A DNA stretch of 64,000 bases from an uncultured cyanobacterium (GCA_963744145.1 CAVUSO010000001.1:608001-672000), one strand, 5' to 3'; numbered from the stretch's first letter, positions 6,658-62,216 are shown. The notes: generated from the sequence alone by a model not told the origin. Program-made: numbers and translations.

Positions 6658-7008
<351 letters not shown>

Positions 7009-7104
7009 CTAGCAATTACTGCTTTTGCCAATCTGAGCAAAACTACTGGCTAAGAAAACTAATTGTTAGTTATCAACCCTTAGCTAGTTTTTGCTTTTCT
7101 GAAT

Positions 7105-7866
7105 TTAGTGGTGTTCCTCATGCTCACCACCATGCCCCTCCATTGCTTCGCCAATATAGACGCCGGCTAAGGTGGAGAAAATCAGCGCCTGAATTGCACT
7201 GGTAAATAATCCTAATAACATGACTGGCAAGGGAATAAACAGGGGCACTAGCAATACTAAGACTGCGACCACTAGTTCATCCGCCAAAATGTTACCAAAT
7301 AGACGGAAGCTCAGGGAGAGGGGCTTGGTAAAATCTTCCAAAATATTGATGGGCAATAAAATCGGCGTGGGCTGAATATATTTGGCAAAGTATTCTAAGC
7401 CGCGTTTTTTAAACCCAGCATAGAAATAAGCCAAAGATGTCAGCAACGCTAGTGCCACAGTGGTGTTGATGTCATTGGTGGGGGCTGCTAGCTCACCCGC
7501 CGGTATATGGATCAACTTCCAAGGAATCAGAGCGCCCGACCAATTTGAAATAAAGATGAACAAAAACAACGTACCAATAAATGGCACCCAAGGGCGATAT
7601 TCTTTTTCACCAATCTGGTTTTTCGCTATATCTCGAATAAATTCCAGGGCAAATTCCATGAAATTTTGCATCCCGCTCGGAACGCGCTGGATGTTACGAG
7701 TCCCTGCGATCGTGGCGATGAGCAAGATGGTAATGACTAACCAAGAGGTAATCAATACTTGCCCATGTACTTTCAGGTTGCCGATTTGCCAGTATAAATG
7801 CTGGCCAAGTTCTAATTTGGCGAGGGGGAAAAAATTAATGGTGGTTAAACTGGTTAGCATTTCCAT
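7105..7866 (-). CDS. atpB: ATP synthase F0 subunit a (cyanobacterial atpI)
   Basis: [19 protein letters not shown]. Confidence 0.98.
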
Positions 7867-7909
7867 TCAAGAGGTTTCCCCAGGGTTCTAGGAGTGGCTT
7901 ATGCCCAAG

Positions 7910-8395
7910 CTACATCCCTGAGCGTGATGTAGGTGTAATGACAGTGCGGAGTAAATAAGCTAGGACTGTCACTTTATAGGTCAGAAAACCCAAAAATATG
8001 GGCAGAATCTGGAGCTGTTTCAATTGAGTTGAAGCTATAATCAACCCAACAAATAAAGCCAAGCGAGCTTTACTCAGATGCTGATTTTCTGTGCCGAGAC
8101 GCTCAACGTCTTTCGCCATCATTCTTAAGTAAATCACACCCGTGCAAGCCCCAAGCAAATAATTGAGAGCAACGCTTAGGGAATAAACGAGCCAAACAGA
8201 GATAAAAATTATCCCTATAAAAACAAGAGTGCCCAGCAATAAGAATTGTTGGAGTTGATAAAACTCTTGCAGAGAATGGTTTGGTTCTGACGAGAGAGAG
8301 CCAGATTGGGGCACAAGTCCCGTTTCTGGAATGGGTTGGATAGGTTCGTCTGGCGAGATCACCGAGTTTAGCTGGGATATGCAGGCCATTGGCAA
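7910..8395 (-). CDS. atpI: ATP synthase protein I (Atp1)
   Basis: Hydrophobic, GFLTYK motif, first gene of the operon; start uncertain. Confidence 0.85.
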
Positions 8396-52964: not shown

Positions 52965-55356
52965 TTAAAAAATTGGTAATAATAAGGTTTTTTCAATTTC
53001 CTGACGCACTAATGGATTAATATCACCATCACTATAGAGACAATCTACTAGTAATTTATTCGCATCATAATATTGTTTAAGAATTTGCTTTTGTGATTGA
53101 TCAAATTGCCAATAATATTTTTTCTGAGTATGGATTCTCAACAGATTTTTTAATTGTTCAATCCAGTCTAAACCAGAGTTTTGCCACCAATGATTAATTA
53201 AATTTGCATCTCCTGAAAAATCAGGAACTTGCGCGTTTAGTTGGTTCAGCGATCGTTGTAATTCCAGTGCTTGGTCATCATCCAAAATTAAATTAAACTG
53301 AATTGCATAATCAATCGTTTGGGCTATAATGTTAATTCGACTCAGAGCTTTACTCAAGATCTGGTCAGGCATATTTTGGTCATAGTCACTCGGAAAATTA
53401 AAGTTAATTACACCTTGATTAACTGCAAAATCTCGATCAATAGTATAAGCTAGAGACAGATATAATGGCAAGGGAAAGTAAGCAAAATTGGGAAAGGGCA
53501 AATTAGCAGGACCAAGATTAAAGCTACTACTTAAGTGATGATCGATCGCGCGAACTAGAGAAAAGTAAAATGCTCGAAGTGCTGCTGGTTTAGCACTGAT
53601 TCCGCTAGTTTCAGCTTTCGAGTTAATCCAGATCAGTAACTGCTGTAATTTTTCATCTTCCTTAGCGATCGCATCAATATTTTCTTTCATTAATAACAGT
53701 AGTTCATCCGCTGGAATTAACATAGCTGTAGCTAGTAAAAATACCTCTCTCCAGCGGTTTTCAGTAACATGACTTGCCAATTTTTTGAGAGTGTTAATTC
53801 CCCCAGTAGTCATTTGTTTAGCTGTAAAATATTCCTGAAAAGTTAGATGAGAAAAAGAATAAATACGTCGCGCTCTTTCTACCATTAATCCATGCTGGGA
53901 TTCTAGGGATTTTAGCACTGCTTTACTTTCTATTTGCCATCCTACTGAGGTATTATTATAATTTTGTTTCTCTTGAAAATAGTCGGCAATTAATTTCTGA
54001 ATTTTTGTTTGCTCAAAGAAATATTCTCCCGCTTCAAAGGTATAAGCTGCTAAATAACTGAGTAATTGAATTTTATCTGCTTGAGATAAATCTTGATAAT
54101 AATCATCGCGCTCTATTCCTCTAGTTTTATCCCATTTTACTAATAAAATATCCAGTCCTTCTTCATAAAGTTTCACTCGTTGGGAGGGAAAATCAGTTTT
54201 TGCTCTAAATACTAAACAGGTTAAATTCAGTAATAAGGGAGTCACCGCTAATTCGCGAATTTGCTGGTTTTCTGGAACGTTTTAATTTTTCCATAAACTG
54301 AGATGCTTGTGCTAATCCTTCGGTCACCGATTGTCCAGCTACTGCCACAAACCATTTTTGGGCAAAATGTTCAATTTGTTCAATGGTAAAATCTGCTATT
54401 TCTACCTCAGTAAATCCAGTAAATCTGTATTCTTGGGCTGCAATCCGACAGGTGATAATAAATTTATTTTTGTGATATTTTTCCGAAAATTTGCGAATTT
54501 GTTTGATAATTTCTTCCTGATTTTTTTCGGTAACTTCATCTAGCCCATCTAATAAAATTAATCCTCTTCCTTGATTGAGGATGGTTTCAATGTCGCTTAA
54601 TTTTACGCCCGAATTCTCAAATTTTTGTTCGATATAGTTAAGAAAATTAAATTTTTCGCTCTGATCGCCATCTTCAGCAAAATCTTTAAGTATAATAAAA
54701 ATCGGTAATAAGTTAGGGACTAATTTACCTTGAATACATTCAATGGCGAGGTACTGTAAAAAAGTAGTTTTACCTGCTCCTGGTTTACCCAATACTTTTA
54801 ATTTGGGAAATTTCAAGAAAGCATTTAATGCCAATACTTCTTTTTGCAACACTTTCCCTAAACCAAAACGGTCAAATTCATCTTGCTCCGGATTGAAGGT
54901 TTGGCGCAGATCAGCTAGTTCGATCCAGCGATGACTAGAGATTTCTTCCAGAATGTTAACATGAACATAAAGATCATTAAGTTGAATTGGTTGAGCTACA
55001 TCTAATAAACGCAATGTGCCACACTGATCTTGGATCTGCGCTTGACACAGAGTCCGTAACTGTTTAACCAGACTGTCGATCTCAAGGTCGGTGTCCATGG
55101 CTGAAATTTTTAGTTCGGTTATATCATTATCCTTCGGTTGCTCGGCTATTTCTTCCCAATCAAGATCCAACTGAAAACAAATTTCGGTAAAAACTCGACG
55201 ATCAACCGGTTGACAGGCAAAAAAACGGCCAATTGCCTGACGAGTTTTTAGTCCCACTTCGTAGGCTAATTGTTCTTGAGTCCACGCTTTGCGATTAAAA
55301 GCCTTCCTCGCTTTCTGGATACCTTCTAGAGATGCCTGAAGCGATCGCTTGGCCAT
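52965..55356 (-). CDS. XRE-HTH + NACHT NTPase + helical C-terminus; apparent +1 frameshift at ~54277
   Basis: MAKRSL...WTQEQLA.EVG HTH, GKPGAGKTT, LILLDGLDE, ITCR; the shifted frame continues PENQQIRELAVTPLLL...FSHLTFQEYFTA. Confidence 0.85.
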
Positions 55357-55659
55357 TCCTCTTCTGCCTCCTTTTTTGATATAATAAGACAAATAATACA
55401 ATTTACACCGGATTAAAACGCTTAACCAAACTTGATCTAAATCATGCACCTGGCATAATTGTAATTATTACAACTAGACAGACGGCATCAATCATGCTGT
55501 ACCAAGTGGTCACTGACTTGATTAATTACGACAATGTCTGATAAAAACAGCAGTTAAGGCTAGCTGAGTATCTCAGCTAGTTCATCCTTTTTACTCTGAC
55601 ATTAATTAATCTGCCAATTATTCAGCAAAATTAAACTCTTGTAGTTACGGAGAAATATC

Positions 55660-57187: not shown

Positions 57188-57604
57188 ATGGAATTAATCA
57201 ATTATCTGCTCACGCACTATGGTGGTGAATATGATGACAAAATGGAGATTTATGCTAAGTTAGGTGTTTTGTATTATGTCATCTATAATCCTTACTATTG
57301 GCAGCGCGATCGCCATCAACCTTTAGAAATTTATCGGTTAGTAAATCAAGTCTATCAACTGCAAAGTGGGGAACCATTTTGGATGTCAGAAATTGGGTTA
57401 GGAATTGGGAGAGGTAGCTATATAGATGGAGACTCTGAACTAGAGGTACTATATTGGTTTGATCAGCAAGGTAATCGCTATTTGACTACAGCAGAAAGAG
57501 CAATCCAAGCTGAACAAAAAGCTACCGAAGTGGAACAAAGAGCTAGACAAGTGGAAGAATTACTGGTTAAATATCGAGACAGATTTGGAGAATTACCTGA
57601 ATAA
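57188..57604 (+). pseudogene. N-terminally truncated Uma2 (DUF820) family endonuclease
   Basis: YGGEYD.K..YA.LGVLYY.IYNP C-terminal half only; catalytic PD segment absent. Confidence 0.65.
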
Positions 57605-57672: not shown

Positions 57673-60303
57673 CTAATCTAAATAGGACTTAATTGTTTCA
57701 GCTATAAATGCTACAGTTTGCCCCTTCAATATATCAAAGTGATATTCATCAATATAGTGAATTTTCACTTCTTTCCCTACGATTTCACCCCAACCTAAAT
57801 CAGGATTAAAATAGTGTTTTACATGTTGAGATTCACAACGAAACAGCACTAGAGAACCTGGGTAAACCTTAGCAGTATAATCTCTATGTGCTTGCATATT
57901 GATATCTAAAATTTTTAATAGGAAATCAGGGGTAGAAACTTCATTTTTCGATAACTCTCCCATTAGATGTTTTTTGTAATCATAGTTAGTTAGTCGATAG
58001 ACAGTTCTCTCCCATACATAATTTAACTTTTCTTTGATTCCTTTAATTCGCCAAATATTTCCCAGATGAAGTTTGACAAATCCAGCTAGTGACTTTTCCA
58101 CTTTGACCGAATTAGGAGAATCTTGATCACACACTCCTAAAAAGCTAATTTTTTCTCCTTCAGCATCTAGTTGTTGTGCTATTTCAAATGCGATAATTCC
58201 CCCAAAAGAATAGCCAAACAAAAGATAAGGACCATAAGGTTGAATAGTGCGGATCTCCTTCAGATAACAATTAGCCATATCCGTTACTCGAGTTAAGGGT
58301 TCTTGTTTACCATCTAAACCAACTGATTGGAGACCATAAATCGGTCTATCTTCACTAAGTTGACGAGCTAATTCACCATATTCTAAAACATTGCCACCGA
58401 TCGCATGAATTAAAAATAAAGGTGTTTTTGAACCTTGGGTGTGAATTGGTACTAATGATGACCAAGATGGTGCCCATTCCGCTTGAGCCATTACCTCGGC
58501 AAATTCGGCAATTGTTTGTTTTTGAAATAAGATAGCTAGTGGAAAGTTCTTTCCCCAAACTTTTTCGATTTCATTAAACAACCGAACTGCAACAAAAGAC
58601 TGTCCTCCTAATTCAAAAAAATTATCTGTAACTCCAATTGGTTTAACCCCTAAGACCTTTTCCCAAATTTTTGTTAGTTCAATTTCTAATTCATTTCGAG
58701 GAGCAACAAAACTATCTTCTAAATCTGACCGACTATAATCTGGTGCTGGTAAAGCGTGACGATCAATTTTGCCATTTAAGGTGAGTGGTAGAGACTCTAA
58801 AATTACCAAAGCTGAAGGTATCATGTAGTCGGGTAATTTAGACTGAAGTATGGAACGGAGATCAGCAATCTTAGGTGGGTTAGATCCATGAAGTACCACA
58901 TAAGCAACTATTCCTGGTTCACCACTACTAAGTTTCCGTTGAATTACTACACTTTCACGGACTCCAGGAATCTGACGTAAACAGCTTTCAATTTCCCCTG
59001 GTTCAATCCGCATCCCATTTAATTTAATCTGAAAGTCAGTTCGACCGAGAATTTCTAGGTTACCATCAGGATCAAAACCACCTCGATCGCCTGTTCGATA
59101 AAATCGCTGTTGATCAATAGTAATGTATCTTTCTGCGGTTAATTCCGGTCGATTTAAATATCCTTGGGTAACTCCTGGTCCACTGATATAAACTTCACCA
59201 CTAGTACCAATGGGAACTAGATCCTGTTCTTCGGGATCATAGAGACGAATTGTCACATTAGAAAAAGGTTGTCCAACCAGAGTTTTAGTTACAGGTTGTT
59301 CTCTGGAGACAAAATAGGAGCAACCCATACAACTAACTTCAGTACAGCCATAAATAACATAAATCTCGGCATTAGGGAAGAACTTTTGCATTCCCACCAA
59401 AACATTTACCGGAGCTAGATCACCACCAGTGGAAACATGACGTAGTCCAGCAAATTTAGCAATATCGATCTGATTCTCTTCGATATAATTAAATAGTTTT
59501 TTAAGCAGATTAGGGGAAGCATGGATCACTGTGATCTGCTCTAAGATTTGACACATTCGTCGAAAATCTAGAATTTGTTCCCGGTCTAAAAGGATTAGAG
59601 TACCACCCGCGACTAGAGGGGAGAGAAGTTCAAAGAAAGTAATACTGAAACTGAAACGGGCGATCGCGGGCATGATCATGGTCTGATCAAAACCAAATCT
59701 TTTTTGAGCTACACTAATATAGTATTGTAAATTCCCATAACTGGTCATGACTCCTTTGGGTTTACCAGTAGTTCCTGATGTGTAAACAATGTAAGCAGTC
59801 TGGTTTAAGTTAATTACATGATTGGGATTGTCGGTGGAGCAATGCTCAATCGTAGACCAATCCCGATCGCAACAAAAAATCTTGACCGTTAGGGTGGATA
59901 ATTTTGGTAAGAACTCGGCTTGAGTCAGGATTACCTGCGGTTGGTTGTCTTCTAAAAGCGTAGTGAGTCGATCCTGGGGATAATTGGGATCGAGGGGAAT
60001 ATAAACTCCTCCTGCTTTGAAAATACTCAGTAAAGCTATTCCAACTTCCAAAGATGGTTTGAAAAAAACACTGACCCGAACTTCAGGACCTACTCCCACA
60101 TTGATGAGGAAGTGAGCTAGTTGATTAGCTTGTTGATTTAGTTCCAGATAGGTGAGAGCGCGATCTTCAAACCTTAAAGCAATTGCTGTTGGTTGTTGTT
60201 TAGCATGATTTTCAATTGCTTCATGGAGCATAAAGCGATCGCAGCTATTAACAAAGCTAACCGCTTCCTGAGCATCTGACATAAAATCTTTACCCTGACT
60301 CAA
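57673..60303 (-). CDS. Stand-alone NRPS-like enzyme (adenylation-thiolation-thioesterase)
   Basis: YTSGTTGKPKG, YGCTE, YRTGD, NGKIDR; FFELGGQS carrier Ser; GYSFGG thioesterase. Confidence 0.93.
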   Translation of the reverse strand: MSQGKDFMSDAQEAVSFVNSCDRFMLHEAIENHAKQQPTAIALRFEDRALTYLELNQQANQLAHFLINVGVGPEVRVSVFFKPSLEVGIALLSIFKAGGVYIPLDPNYPQDRLTTLLEDNQPQVILTQAEFLPKLSTLTVKIFCCDRDWSTIEHCSTDNPNHVINLNQTAYIVYTSGTTGKPKGVMTSYGNLQYYISVAQKRFGFDQTMIMPAIARFSFSITFFELLSPLVAGGTLILLDREQILDFRRMCQILEQITVIHASPNLLKKLFNYIEENQIDIAKFAGLRHVSTGGDLAPVNVLVGMQKFFPNAEIYVIYGCTEVSCMGCSYFVSREQPVTKTLVGQPFSNVTIRLYDPEEQDLVPIGTSGEVYISGPGVTQGYLNRPELTAERYITIDQQRFYRTGDRGGFDPDGNLEILGRTDFQIKLNGMRIEPGEIESCLRQIPGVRESVVIQRKLSSGEPGIVAYVVLHGSNPPKIADLRSILQSKLPDYMIPSALVILESLPLTLNGKIDRHALPAPDYSRSDLEDSFVAPRNELEIELTKIWEKVLGVKPIGVTDNFFELGGQSFVAVRLFNEIEKVWGKNFPLAILFQKQTIAEFAEVMAQAEWAPSWSSLVPIHTQGSKTPLFLIHAIGGNVLEYGELARQLSEDRPIYGLQSVGLDGKQEPLTRVTDMANCYLKEIRTIQPYGPYLLFGYSFGGIIAFEIAQQLDAEGEKISFLGVCDQDSPNSVKVEKSLAGFVKLHLGNIWRIKGIKEKLNYVWERTVYRLTNYDYKKHLMGELSKNEVSTPDFLLKILDINMQAHRDYTAKVYPGSLVLFRCESQHVKHYFNPDLGWGEIVGKEVKIHYIDEYHFDILKGQTVAFIAETIKSYLD

Positions 60304-60379
60304 GTTATGAGAAAACCTATTACATTATTATATTTCAATATGGTTCAGGAACTCGGCGCAGAAGAAGGGTTTACCCGCT

Positions 60380-60545
60380 CGCGTAGTCGAAGGGTGAAGC
60401 ATTCGGATCTAATATTACTGCCCTTCGACTACGCCCCCTTCGACTACGCTCAGGGTAAACTTCGACTACGCTCAGGGCAAGGCTCAGGGTAAACTCAGGG
60501 TAAAGTTTAATCGCTCAATTGTCGCCCGAATGCTTCACCCCTACA
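60380..60545. repeat. Nested REP-like repeat cluster
   Basis: Outer inverted pair GGGTGAAGCATTCGG / CCGAATGCTTCACCC enclosing several CTTCGACTACGCTCAGGG units. Confidence 0.75.
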
Positions 60546-60575
60546 CTTAAATTAACCCAATTATATTATATTTTG

Positions 60576-61664
60576 CTAAAGATTGCCGCGCAGAGCTTGT
60601 TCTTTTTCTAGAGCAATGAATAAAGATTTGAAATTTCCAGCTCCAAAACCTTTACACCCATGTCGCTCAATAATTTCAAAAAATAAGGTGGGGCGATCGG
60701 CAACTGGTGTTGTAAAAGTTTGCAATAAATAACCATCTTGGTCACGATCAATCAAAAGTCCTAATTCTGCTAGATCCTCAATCGGTACATCAATTTCTCG
60801 GACCCAGTCTTCGAGATGATCATAGTATTTTTGGGGAATTTTTAAAAATTCAACTCCACGCTCTTTCATTTCCCGAACTGTTTGGAAAATATTATCAGTA
60901 TTCAAACCTAAATGCTGAATTCCCGGTCCATTGTGATAATCTAAATATTCTTGAATTTGAGACTTTCGTCTTCCGGGTGCAGGTTCATTGATGTTAATAA
61001 TTGTACCGGCGCTATTTTTTAGCACTTTTGACATTAGGGCAGAATATTCTGTAGAAATAGCATTGTCATCATAATGTGTTCGCATCTCAAATCCCAAAGC
61101 TTTGACAAAAATGTTAACCCAGCGATCCATCTCTCCTTTTTCCACATTCCCAACTGTATGATCGATGGATTTTAATCCGACCGAATTACTTTGGGTTGAT
61201 TCTTGCTGTACAAACCCCGGTCCAAATTTATTCGCGTAATGACGGCGATCGATAAATTTAACTAAGGTATCACCAAAAATCTTAATTACTGCAAACTCCA
61301 AGATTCCATTCTCATCTTCTTGTTTAGTTGGTGGAATTGCTGCGATCGCACCCTCAGCTATAGCTTGGGTATAGGTAGTCGTTACATCTGTAACTTCTAA
61401 AGCGACGATCGCGATCGTATCTCCATGCTGAAAAACACTTTGAGAAATTGGATGATCTGAATTTAAAGCCGAACTTATAACAAAGCGAATTTCTCCTTGC
61501 TCCAGCAAATAAGAAGACACCTTACGTTCGCCCGTTTTTAGTCCTTTATGTGCGGTATTGGTAAAGCCAAAATATTTAGTATAAAACCCGCAAGTTTGTT
61601 TAGCATTTCCCACATAAAACTCTAAATGGTCTAGTCGTTTAATTAGATTGTTATTGTTCGTCAT
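60576..61664 (-). CDS. hppD: 4-hydroxyphenylpyruvate dioxygenase family enzyme
   Basis: DHLEFYVGNAKQ, DHTVGNV, SQIQEYL...GPGIQH, FFEIIER, GFGAGNFKSLF. Confidence 0.92.
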   Translation of the reverse strand: MTNNNNLIKRLDHLEFYVGNAKQTCGFYTKYFGFTNTAHKGLKTGERKVSSYLLEQGEIRFVISSALNSDHPISQSVFQHGDTIAIVALEVTDVTTTYTQAIAEGAIAAIPPTKQEDENGILEFAVIKIFGDTLVKFIDRRHYANKFGPGFVQQESTQSNSVGLKSIDHTVGNVEKGEMDRWVNIFVKALGFEMRTHYDDNAISTEYSALMSKVLKNSAGTIININEPAPGRRKSQIQEYLDYHNGPGIQHLGLNTDNIFQTVREMKERGVEFLKIPQKYYDHLEDWVREIDVPIEDLAELGLLIDRDQDGYLLQTFTTPVADRPTLFFEIIERHGCKGFGAGNFKSLFIALEKEQALRGNL

Positions 61665-62157
61665 ACTCTCTTATCCTAACCTCGGTATCCTCAAAAAACA
61701 TTCTAGAAATGCTAGAAATGTTAGTAACATCAGTTCGACAGCATCTAAAAAACCAGGAAAATATAAGGTTATTGAATTTAAGCATTTATTAATGGGAAAG
61801 TTTTTACCTAAACTCCCACTAAGCAATCACTTACATTTCCATTCAAATGAAGAGGGTAATTTAGTCAATTGTGGATGAAATACAACTCAAACAAGGAGTA
61901 ACGCCCGATTAATTTTTATGGCATTTTCAACAAATATAAGGTTTTACAGTCTTTTTTTCTTCTTTGCTAGGCTGCTTCTATTCTAATCAGCCATAACTGG
62001 TTTGTCAAGTTAATATCCAAAAATTTTATCCAGGTACTTTTTATACCATTTTAATTACTGAACTAAACTTAAGTTTTATTGGTGTAATTCAATGGTCAGA
62101 ATAATTATTGGTAATACCATTAATAAATTTATGAATTTTTTTATGATTTATTGGTGC

Positions 62158-62186
62158 AAAAAAAACTCCTTAGTAATACCAAGGAG
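62158..62186 (-). terminator. Intrinsic terminator after ndhD
   Basis: Minus strand CTCCTTGGTATTACTAAGGAG followed by T8. Confidence 0.7.
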
Positions 62187-62216
62187 CCATTAAACTATAA
62201 CCAAAAACGATGAGAA

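Follow-up and report, generated by a model that had tools for sequence, protein, structure and literature searches.

4-Hydroxyphenylpyruvate dioxygenase (HPPD), a herbicide and drug target, is among the best-studied non-haem iron enzymes, and enzymes of its family require a free alpha-keto acid bound at the iron. RalA is an enzyme of adenylation-thiolation-thioesterase (A-T-TE) layout that dimerises aryl-pyruvates. In glycopeptide clusters, hydroxymandelate synthase (HmaS) supplies, together with prephenate dehydrogenase, a C6-C2 aromatic acid skeleton to the chemistry of nonribosomal peptide synthetases (NRPSs) (PMC12060904). Here we describe a locus in which an HPPD-like gene, P0002, adjoins an A-T-TE synthetase gene, P0001. 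It lies at positions 57673-61664 of a 64,000-nt stretch of DNA (the window) from an uncultured cyanobacterium (GCA_963744145.1 CAVUSO010000001.1:608001-672000), whose genome is assembled as 7.7 Mb on four contigs at 96.3% completeness. Our analysis points to an undescribed aromatic product made by the pair. We give a probability of about 60% to the reading that the two genes form one biosynthetic unit, in which a variant HPPD would make homogentisate or a related C6-C2 acid that is loaded by the A domain and released by the thioesterase. A literature search, with subscription journals and supplements outside its coverage, found no paper linking HPPD or homogentisate with an NRPS.

The dioxygenase and the synthetase compared with described enzymes

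The first-pass annotation of the window had proposed a co-directional pair of an hppD-like and an A-T-TE gene, the latter without a condensation domain, a dioxygenase that keeps its His/His/Glu iron ligands yet reads NINEP, and an A4 region, FSFSITFFE, in which Ser stands for the alpha-amino-binding Asp, with a non-amino acid as the predicted substrate. Each of these points agrees with the comparisons given below. Both open reading frames (ORFs) lie on the minus strand, P0002 with 362 amino acids (aa) at 60576..61664 and P0001 with 876 aa, counted from a TTG, at 57673..60303, and are separated by 272 nt. The start of P0001 is probably the ATG at 60282, since an identical database protein of 869 aa begins there, seven codons in, and with this start the gap would be 293 nt.

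P0002 scores 393 bits against the 4HPPD model TIGR01263 (cut-off 277), and its best solved relative, the S. avermitilis HPPD 1T47, aligns with it from end to end (E 6e-96). H169, H251 and E330 fall on the iron-ligand positions of 1T47 (2-His-1-Glu). Residues 224-228 (60981..60995, minus strand) read NINEP where 1T47 has PINEP, so that of the conserved Pro and Asn of this strand only the Asn (human N241) is kept and N224 replaces the Pro. A further change lies in the motif QHLGL (60903..60917, minus strand), which holds the second ligand His, H251, and in which G253 stands in place of the usual Ala (human A268). The PINEP Pro corresponds to human P239 and to 'P214' of the S. avermitilis mutagenesis work, where P214T leads to oxepinone in an uncoupled reaction and F337I to hydroxymandelate, homogentisate and oxepinone; the same paper locates human Ala268 within the active site, adjoining the metal motif (PMC13260116). 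Of 146 aligned HPPD-family representatives, 100 have Pro at the first PINEP position and 6 have Asn, and the combination found in P0002, Asn at this position with Gly two residues past the second His ligand, occurs in none (0/146).

Compared with the canonical enzymes (1T47 and human HPD), P0002 is thus alike in its score above the cut-off, its iron ligands, its PINEP Asn and its full length, and different at two active-site positions, with Asn for human P239 and Gly for human A268, as well as in its genomic context, which appears biosynthetic and neither catabolic nor tocopherol-related. HmaS (2R5V) shares fold and substrate with HPPD, but P0002 is far nearer to the true HPPDs (E 6e-96 vs 1.9e-47 for 2R5V). 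HmaS-like sequences among the 146 representatives replace the PINEP Asn and read TLIEP, SIVEP or VLVEP, motifs with a hydrophobic residue that we take to mark HmaS, whereas P0002 keeps the Asn. As a separate observation, a relative of the host from the same order (L077; G019:C13, HPPD-like gene at ~7000-8100) holds a long-branch HPPD homologue that reads SIVEP at the PINEP site and, judged by this, looks hydroxymandelate-synthase-like; no member of the A family described below was found in the fetched stretch.

In P0001 the Pfam scan identified AMP-binding (residues 31-383), AMP-binding_C, PP-binding (543-603) and Thioesterase (628-872) domains, and no match to a Condensation domain. The adenylation domain (residues ~31-512; 58768..60213, minus strand) has intact core motifs (YTSGTTGKPKG, YGCTEVS, YRTGD, GRTDFQIKLNGMRIEPGEIE and NGKIDR) and scores 344 bits against TIGR01733, the amino acid adenylation domain model (cut-off 317). 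It is followed by a thiolation or carrier domain (PF00550, residues 543-603; 58495..58677, minus strand) with the phosphopantetheine Ser569 in GGQSF, a residue invariant in two homologue alignments, and by a thioesterase domain (PF00975, residues 628-872; 57688..58422, minus strand) with Ser699 in GYSFGG, Asp726 and His855. The best solved relatives of the latter are thioesterases of NRPSs, of fatty acid synthase (FAS), of EntF and of Pks13. Core motifs, S569 and the triad Ser699/Asp726/His855 are invariant in the six closest homologues.

The predicted substrate class depends on the adenylation pocket. FSFSITFFE covers P0001 residues 217-225, its first six letters lying at 59638..59655 (minus strand), with S220 at position 235, I221 at 236 and F224 at 239. 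The F-D of the FD.S motif in LgrA A1, LgrA A2 and Tcp9 A1 aligns with F219-S220, so that FD.S reads FSIT and Asp235 is replaced by Ser220, the second Ser of FSFSITFFE. Asp235 binds the amino group of the substrate (PMC13643306, PMC11356792). Of the two residues expected in an amino-acid A domain, Asp235 and Lys517, P0001 retains the Lys, as K512 in NGKIDR. The full nine-residue code reads S-I-F-H-S-G-I-C-M, then Lys517 (K512); here position 278 was set to H261 by alignment to the structure 8GIC and the table of PMC11356792, and His237 of 8GIC contacts the substrate (PMC12060904). The same code occurs in 49 of 60 segments of the A family, cyanobacterial and other. Ser occupies position 235 in all 57 family segments that cover the site, and the second-module A domains of the same proteins keep Asp. 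Because Ser235 sits in a nearly invariant pocket code, the prediction that the A domain of P0001 loads a non-amino acid holds at the level of sequence.

Which acid this may be is suggested by the best solved match to the A4-A5 segment of P0001, 8GIC (E 2e-9), the core of Tcp9 A1 from the teicoplanin NRPS with bound L-4-hydroxyphenylglycine (L-Hpg) (PMC12060904). Both have F at 239, H at 278 and G at 301, and this likeness to an Hpg pocket fits an aryl-C-COOH skeleton. The two differ in Asp235 to Ser, in Leu299 to Ser and in Leu-Cys to Cys-Met at 330/331, and when the A domain is compared in full, other NRPSs (LgrA) score above Tcp9. Tcp9 A1 also adenylates the keto-acid analogue of Hpg (PMC12060904). 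The comparison with Hpg was made on the 8GIC alignment, since no printed Hpg code string was found in the literature search.

The closest published counterpart is module 1 of the NRPS OA858_03905 of Pseudanabaena galeata CCNP1313, whose code equals that of P0001 at 9/9 positions (PMC11356792, Table 1). It is likewise cyanobacterial, keeps Lys517 and was predicted to take a non-amino 'hydroxy/carboxy-acid' (PMC11356792, section 3.2). It differs in being part of an A-PCP-C-A-PCP-TE enzyme (PCP, peptidyl carrier protein; C, condensation domain), the second module of which was assigned Arg, compared with the A-T-TE of P0001 (PMC11356792). That paper names no product, and 'hydroxyphenylpyruvate', 'dioxygenase' and 'homogentis-' have 0 occurrences each in its text. 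The Ser235 code has thus been noticed once before, in P. galeata, in a paper that mentions neither substrate, product nor HPPD (PMC11356792).

Conservation of the gene pair and distribution of the A family

As P0001 used as sole query returned no relative in genome contigs, a profile of the A4-A5 sub-alignment was used instead, and the search was conducted by A domain alone in species-representative genomes. It gave 58 loci, of which 24 are cyanobacterial, and in 17 of these 24 an HPPD gene 62-70% identical to P0002 adjoins the synthetase gene. The HPPD gene is mostly divergently transcribed; the two Pseudanabaena loci share the co-directional layout of the window. Of the seven cyanobacterial loci with no adjoining HPPD, three belong to genomes that hold a NINEP HPPD elsewhere, and the other four comprise two Phormidesmis loci with a divergent pocket code, one short contig of a metagenome-assembled genome (MAG) and one Kamptonema locus. 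The two Phormidesmis MAGs (L044 and L054) represent a divergent A branch with the code S-I-F-H-F-G-L-S-L, followed by a rhomboid protease gene, in genomes with only a PINEP HPPD of type 2.

Co-occurrence was also determined independently of the A gene, by searching each protein separately in an even sample of 400 cyanobacterial genomes. HPPDs at E <= 1.9e-155 were found in 19 genomes, and all 19 read NINEP; the next ten that were fetched all read PINEP. The A family (>=199 bits) occurred in 18 of the 400 genomes, and all 18 are among the 19 with a NINEP HPPD. In the nineteenth, 360 nt separate the HPPD gene from the end of its contig. Of the 18 genomes, 13 have the two genes within <=5 kb of each other; in two the genes share a replicon at a large distance, and in the other three they are on separate contigs. 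Weaker A matches (125-190 bits) were detected in eight further sample genomes, which have no NINEP HPPD. Since part of the sample coincides with the 58 loci and related genomes do not count as independent, we report counts and no probability. Looked for in other genomes, the gene pair proved to be widely conserved in its linkage, with 17 loci on the one hand and a NINEP HPPD in 18/18 A-family genomes on the other.

The linked HPPDs moreover form a lineage of their own. In a tree of 38 sequences (17 linked, including that of the window, 18 unlinked cyanobacterial of two types, one odd cyanobacterial and two non-cyanobacterial linked; the partial L013 was omitted) all 17 synthetase-linked cyanobacterial HPPDs fall on one branch with support 100/100, and we class P0002 as a variant HPPD of this synthetase-linked 'NINEP' clade. 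Two alignment columns alone, residues 224 and 253, separate the clade from the nearest unlinked type. Residue 224 is Asn in 17/17 linked enzymes and Pro in 9/9 type-1 and 9/9 type-2 unlinked cyanobacterial HPPDs, and residue 253 is Gly in 17/17 linked vs Ala in 18/18 unlinked ones. Gly253 was also present in 18 of the 19 further NINEP genes of the 400-genome sample; Ala was found in one sample genome and in one metagenome contig. Since the adjacency recurs, the two genes co-occur at the genome level and the HPPDs form a separate clade, the pairing of hppD and synthetase is not due to chance.

Pantanalinema has both kinds of HPPD: the NINEP copy adjoins the NRPS gene, and the surroundings of the canonical PINEP copy look catabolic. 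In Pantanalinema rosaneae (L026, 34-6707) the genes after the PINEP HPPD encode a weakly HgmA_N-like protein (TIGR01015, 55 bits, far short of the cut-off), an unannotated protein of 307 aa, an acetyl-CoA-synthetase-like protein and an aminotransferase, and then come the NINEP HPPD and NRPS genes. From its gene content this region may be a larger aromatic-acid gene cluster.

Annotation with Pfam and NCBIfam revealed recurring partners in the cyanobacterial cassettes. A chorismate mutase/prephenate dehydrogenase gene adjoins the HPPD gene in seven loci (NF008400, 288 bits, cut-off 273) and an AroFGH-type 3-deoxy-D-arabino-heptulosonate 7-phosphate (DAHP) synthase gene is present in three; together these enzymes lead to 4-hydroxyphenylpyruvate and would thus supply the precursor. 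A family-2 glycosyltransferase (GT2) gene directly follows the synthetase gene in seven loci, and trpD occurs in three, including two Leptolyngbyaceae cassettes (L018 and L019). In Kamptonema sp. UHCC 0994 (L010, 8136-12031), trpD (TIGR01245, ~382 bits) lies 60 nt upstream of the P0001 homologue on the same strand. The synthetase itself varies in form. It is A-T-TE in the window, in Kamptonema and in one Pseudanabaena, while other forms carry an N-terminal extension of ~220-350 aa, without HHxxxDG, whose match to a condensation domain is confined to the C-terminal part of that domain, are two-module enzymes ((remnant)-A-T-C-A-T-TE) or read A-T-C, and some members of the A family have no Pfam thioesterase. 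On our best reading the window pair is a stripped-down, minimal form of a cassette conserved in many filamentous cyanobacteria.

Outside the cyanobacteria the A family was found in Polyangiaceae, Burkholderiales, Verrucomicrobia, Acidobacteria, Bacteroidetes and others. Seven of the 34 non-cyanobacterial genome loci were annotated, and five of these seven lie among polysaccharide genes, which encode a Wzc-like kinase, a Wza-like exporter, a CpsB phosphatase, a priming sugar transferase, GT4 and GT2 glycosyltransferases, a polysaccharide deacetylase, a UDP-glucose dehydrogenase and NeuB with a CMP-transferase. In three non-cyanobacterial loci (L039, L061 and L065) an HPPD-family gene of a different lineage stands beside the A-T-TE gene; the two of these proteins that were scored against the 4HPPD model, those of L061 and L065, pass its cut-off. 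A near-full-length HPPD-family gene was detected in 35 of 39 genomes searched, a figure that comes without a matched background. The 39 comprise 36 genomes whose family locus showed no neighbouring HPPD and the three of L039, L061 and L065, where one is adjacent.

On metagenome contigs, 7 of 9 family loci have an adjacent HPPD-family gene, four of them NINEP and three of a third lineage reading ANNEP. The latter three, on soil and rhizosphere contigs (L149, L150 and L151), encode HPPD-like proteins of 28% identity and 254 bits, just under the 4HPPD cut-off, divergent next to an A-T-TE gene with the same pocket code. The one that was annotated, L149, is a locus resembling those for exopolysaccharide (EPS), with GDP-mannose dehydratase and EpsA-, EpsC- and EpsD-like genes. 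At least three different HPPD lineages are therefore found next to the same A family. The 56-68% homologues of P0001 (P0004, P0005 and P0008) were not recovered in the metagenome scan, in which the best full-length match reached 48% and one partial match 55%.

A candidate pathway and its alternatives

In the pathway that we favour, P0002 would oxidatively decarboxylate 4-hydroxyphenylpyruvate to homogentisate or a closely related C6-C2 aromatic acid. The A domain, with Ser235 in an otherwise arylglycine-like pocket, would adenylate this acid and load it onto the carrier domain. Release by the thioesterase (Ser699, Asp726 and His855) would follow, with a hydroxyl or an amine as the most likely acceptor to which the acid is transferred. 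A C6-C2 acid is preferred over a C6-C3 keto acid because of Ser235, because of the Hpg-like pocket and because the keto acid, if it were the substrate of the synthetase, would be consumed by HPPD. For the acceptor our leading guess is a sugar or glycan, in view of the GT2 genes in cyanobacterial cassettes and the polysaccharide loci elsewhere; lactone formation or hydrolysis would be alternatives.

The fate of homogentisate in the host genome was also investigated. P0002 is the only HPPD-family match there, and no second, housekeeping hppD was found; the first-pass annotation had considered that the gene might be the sole tocopherol-pathway copy, unlinked to this synthetase elsewhere, and the observed linkage and gene content do not agree with such a picture. 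Tocopherol cyclase was not found in the host genome (it is present in 48 of 60 same-order relatives, E ~1e-150), nor was a homogentisate 1,2-dioxygenase (HmgA) domain, and none of the five host UbiA-family genes matched the homogentisate phytyltransferase model, where 'not found' refers to a 96.3%-complete assembly and is no proof of absence. Four of the five pass the cut-offs for heme O synthase, 4-hydroxybenzoate prenyltransferase, chlorophyll synthase and phylloquinone MenA, and the fifth is weak and atypical. A tocopherol role of P0002 was rejected, as neither a cyclase nor a gene matching the phytyltransferase model was found in the host genome, and so was a role in tyrosine catabolism, as no homogentisate 1,2-dioxygenase was found there. 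Among the same-order relatives tocopherol cyclase occurs in 48/60 and HPPD at E <=1e-40 in only 28/60, and many of them seem to have the cyclase without a recognisable HPPD.

Several observations weigh against the favoured pathway. The closest P0001 homologue (Kamptonema, 64%) has no adjacent HPPD, and its genome has only a distant PINEP-type HPPD. The same pocket code is found in 31 non-cyanobacterial loci with no HPPD nearby; in these, either the loaded acid is a common metabolite or an HPPD acts from elsewhere in the genome. The A-core and HPPD trees are only partly congruent, with the A domain of L060 grouping with non-cyanobacteria and that of the window with Kamptonema. In the window the prephenate dehydrogenase and GT2 partners are missing, and no orthologue of either was found in the host genome. 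Promoter- and terminator-like sites in the window are no more numerous than in shuffled sequence. The substrate of the A domain is deduced from neighbourhood and pocket likeness alone, and acceptor and final product are likewise deduced.

Some of these points would suit a pathway that is shared but not organised as supplier and user, in which the A domain loads another hydroxy or carboxy acid and the HPPD product joins later, or an intermediate is tailored by the HPPD-like enzyme after its release. The identical code in many loci with no HPPD nearby, the Kamptonema synthetase in a genome with no NINEP HPPD and the wording of the P. galeata paper, which goes no further than 'hydroxy/carboxy-acid' (PMC11356792), all speak for it. 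We nevertheless consider it unlikely, since the unit in the window consists of two genes alone, with nothing else there to supply the acid, at least three HPPD lineages have come to stand beside this one A family, and the need of HPPD-family enzymes for a free alpha-keto acid on the iron disfavours the tailoring of such an intermediate. The analogy drawn by the first-pass annotation leads to a different chemistry, in which the A domain would load 4-hydroxyphenylpyruvate and the thioesterase would join two units to a terphenylquinone or furanone, as in atromentin and polyporic acid synthetases and RalA. The likeness is considerable: these enzymes are A-T-TE with no C domain, lack Asp235 as P0001 does and take an aromatic, shikimate-derived substrate, and the fuller cassettes would supply 4-hydroxyphenylpyruvate. 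However, position 1 of the code is hydrophobic in keto-acid A domains, Val or another such residue (PMC10316625, PMC13643306), with Val in the case of the atromentin and polyporic acid synthetases, compared here by description (PMC10316625), and P0001 has Ser220. HPPD would also destroy the proposed substrate, and the pocket segment is nearest to that of an arylglycine A domain. Furthermore, the P0001-type A domain works as a loading module too, heading A-T-C-A-T-TE NRPSs and A-T-C proteins, and some members of its family have no Pfam thioesterase. Such a dimer appears quite improbable to us and is the least likely of the chemistries that the first-pass annotation had listed; its broader proposal of an undescribed aromatic metabolite gains from the conserved gene pair.

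Two further explanations deserve hardly any weight. A housekeeping hppD for tocopherol, tyrosine breakdown or pyomelanin might lie by chance beside an unrelated NRPS-like gene, as the sole copy of the gene in the genome and the unrelated housekeeping flanks (ndhD, ndhF, a Uma2 fragment and NACHT genes) would allow; the conserved adjacency, the genome-level co-occurrence, the separate HPPD clade with its own active-site changes and the failure to find a tocopherol cyclase, HmgA or recognisable phytyltransferase in the host genome make this very improbable. Equally remote is an A domain that loads an amino acid despite Ser235. P0001 does pass TIGR01733 (344 bits vs 317), but Ser is found at 235 in all 57 covering segments while second-module A domains keep Asp, whose role in binding the amino group is established (PMC13643306, PMC11356792).

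The favoured supply of a C6-C2 acid by P0002 to the A domain can be extended to a bolder idea, which we regard as doubtful. The NINEP/Gly enzyme might be a natural product-switched HPPD that yields, in place of homogentisate, an arene-oxide-derived oxepinone, a quinol-acetate or a mandelate-type acid, and the A family a cross-phylum device that activates HPPD-family products and attaches them to sugars or exopolysaccharides or, in its two-module forms, to an amino acid. The idea of a product switch arises because the change from Pro to Asn sits exactly where laboratory mutation uncouples the reaction. A natural HPPD clade altered at a product-partitioning residue and tied to a dedicated downstream enzyme would give a handle on how nature tunes the outcome of this reaction. 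As the synthetase family is widespread and its pocket nearly invariant, a single substrate assignment could cover ~70 collected loci across several phyla. Should a glycan prove to be the acceptor, cyanobacterial and bacterial exopolysaccharides would carry an aromatic decoration of a new kind; a part in pigmentation, redox protection or UV screening is speculation.

Gene layout and neighbouring regions

A promoter-like site with 11/12 matches was detected upstream of hppD (61980..62008, minus strand) and a terminator-like hairpin 3' of ndhD (62164-62188, minus strand), in a scan whose totals for both kinds of site were not above those of shuffled controls. The same scan showed no terminator-like site between hppD and the synthetase gene, and the reading of the two genes as an operon is based on their spacing alone. 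The flanking genes, ndhD, ndhF, a Uma2 fragment, NACHT genes and cofH, are unrelated to the pair. Directly 3' of the synthetase gene, there is a 138-aa ORF (57188-57604, plus strand) that is probably a gene remnant; its match to the Uma2 'putative restriction endonuclease' profile is confined to the C-terminal part of the profile and falls just under the cut-off. Two overlapping ORFs farther away (52965-54245 and 54205-55449, both minus strand) carry a NACHT domain in the upstream and a NACHT C-terminal helical domain 2 in the downstream frame, and may be the halves of one STAND NTPase encoded by a frameshifted or split NACHT gene. Elsewhere in the host genome there are at least three further NRPS regions (G000:C1 at ~488-501 kb, 933-936 kb and 4.437-4.448 Mb), with condensation-bearing modules of 34-41% identity to P0001.

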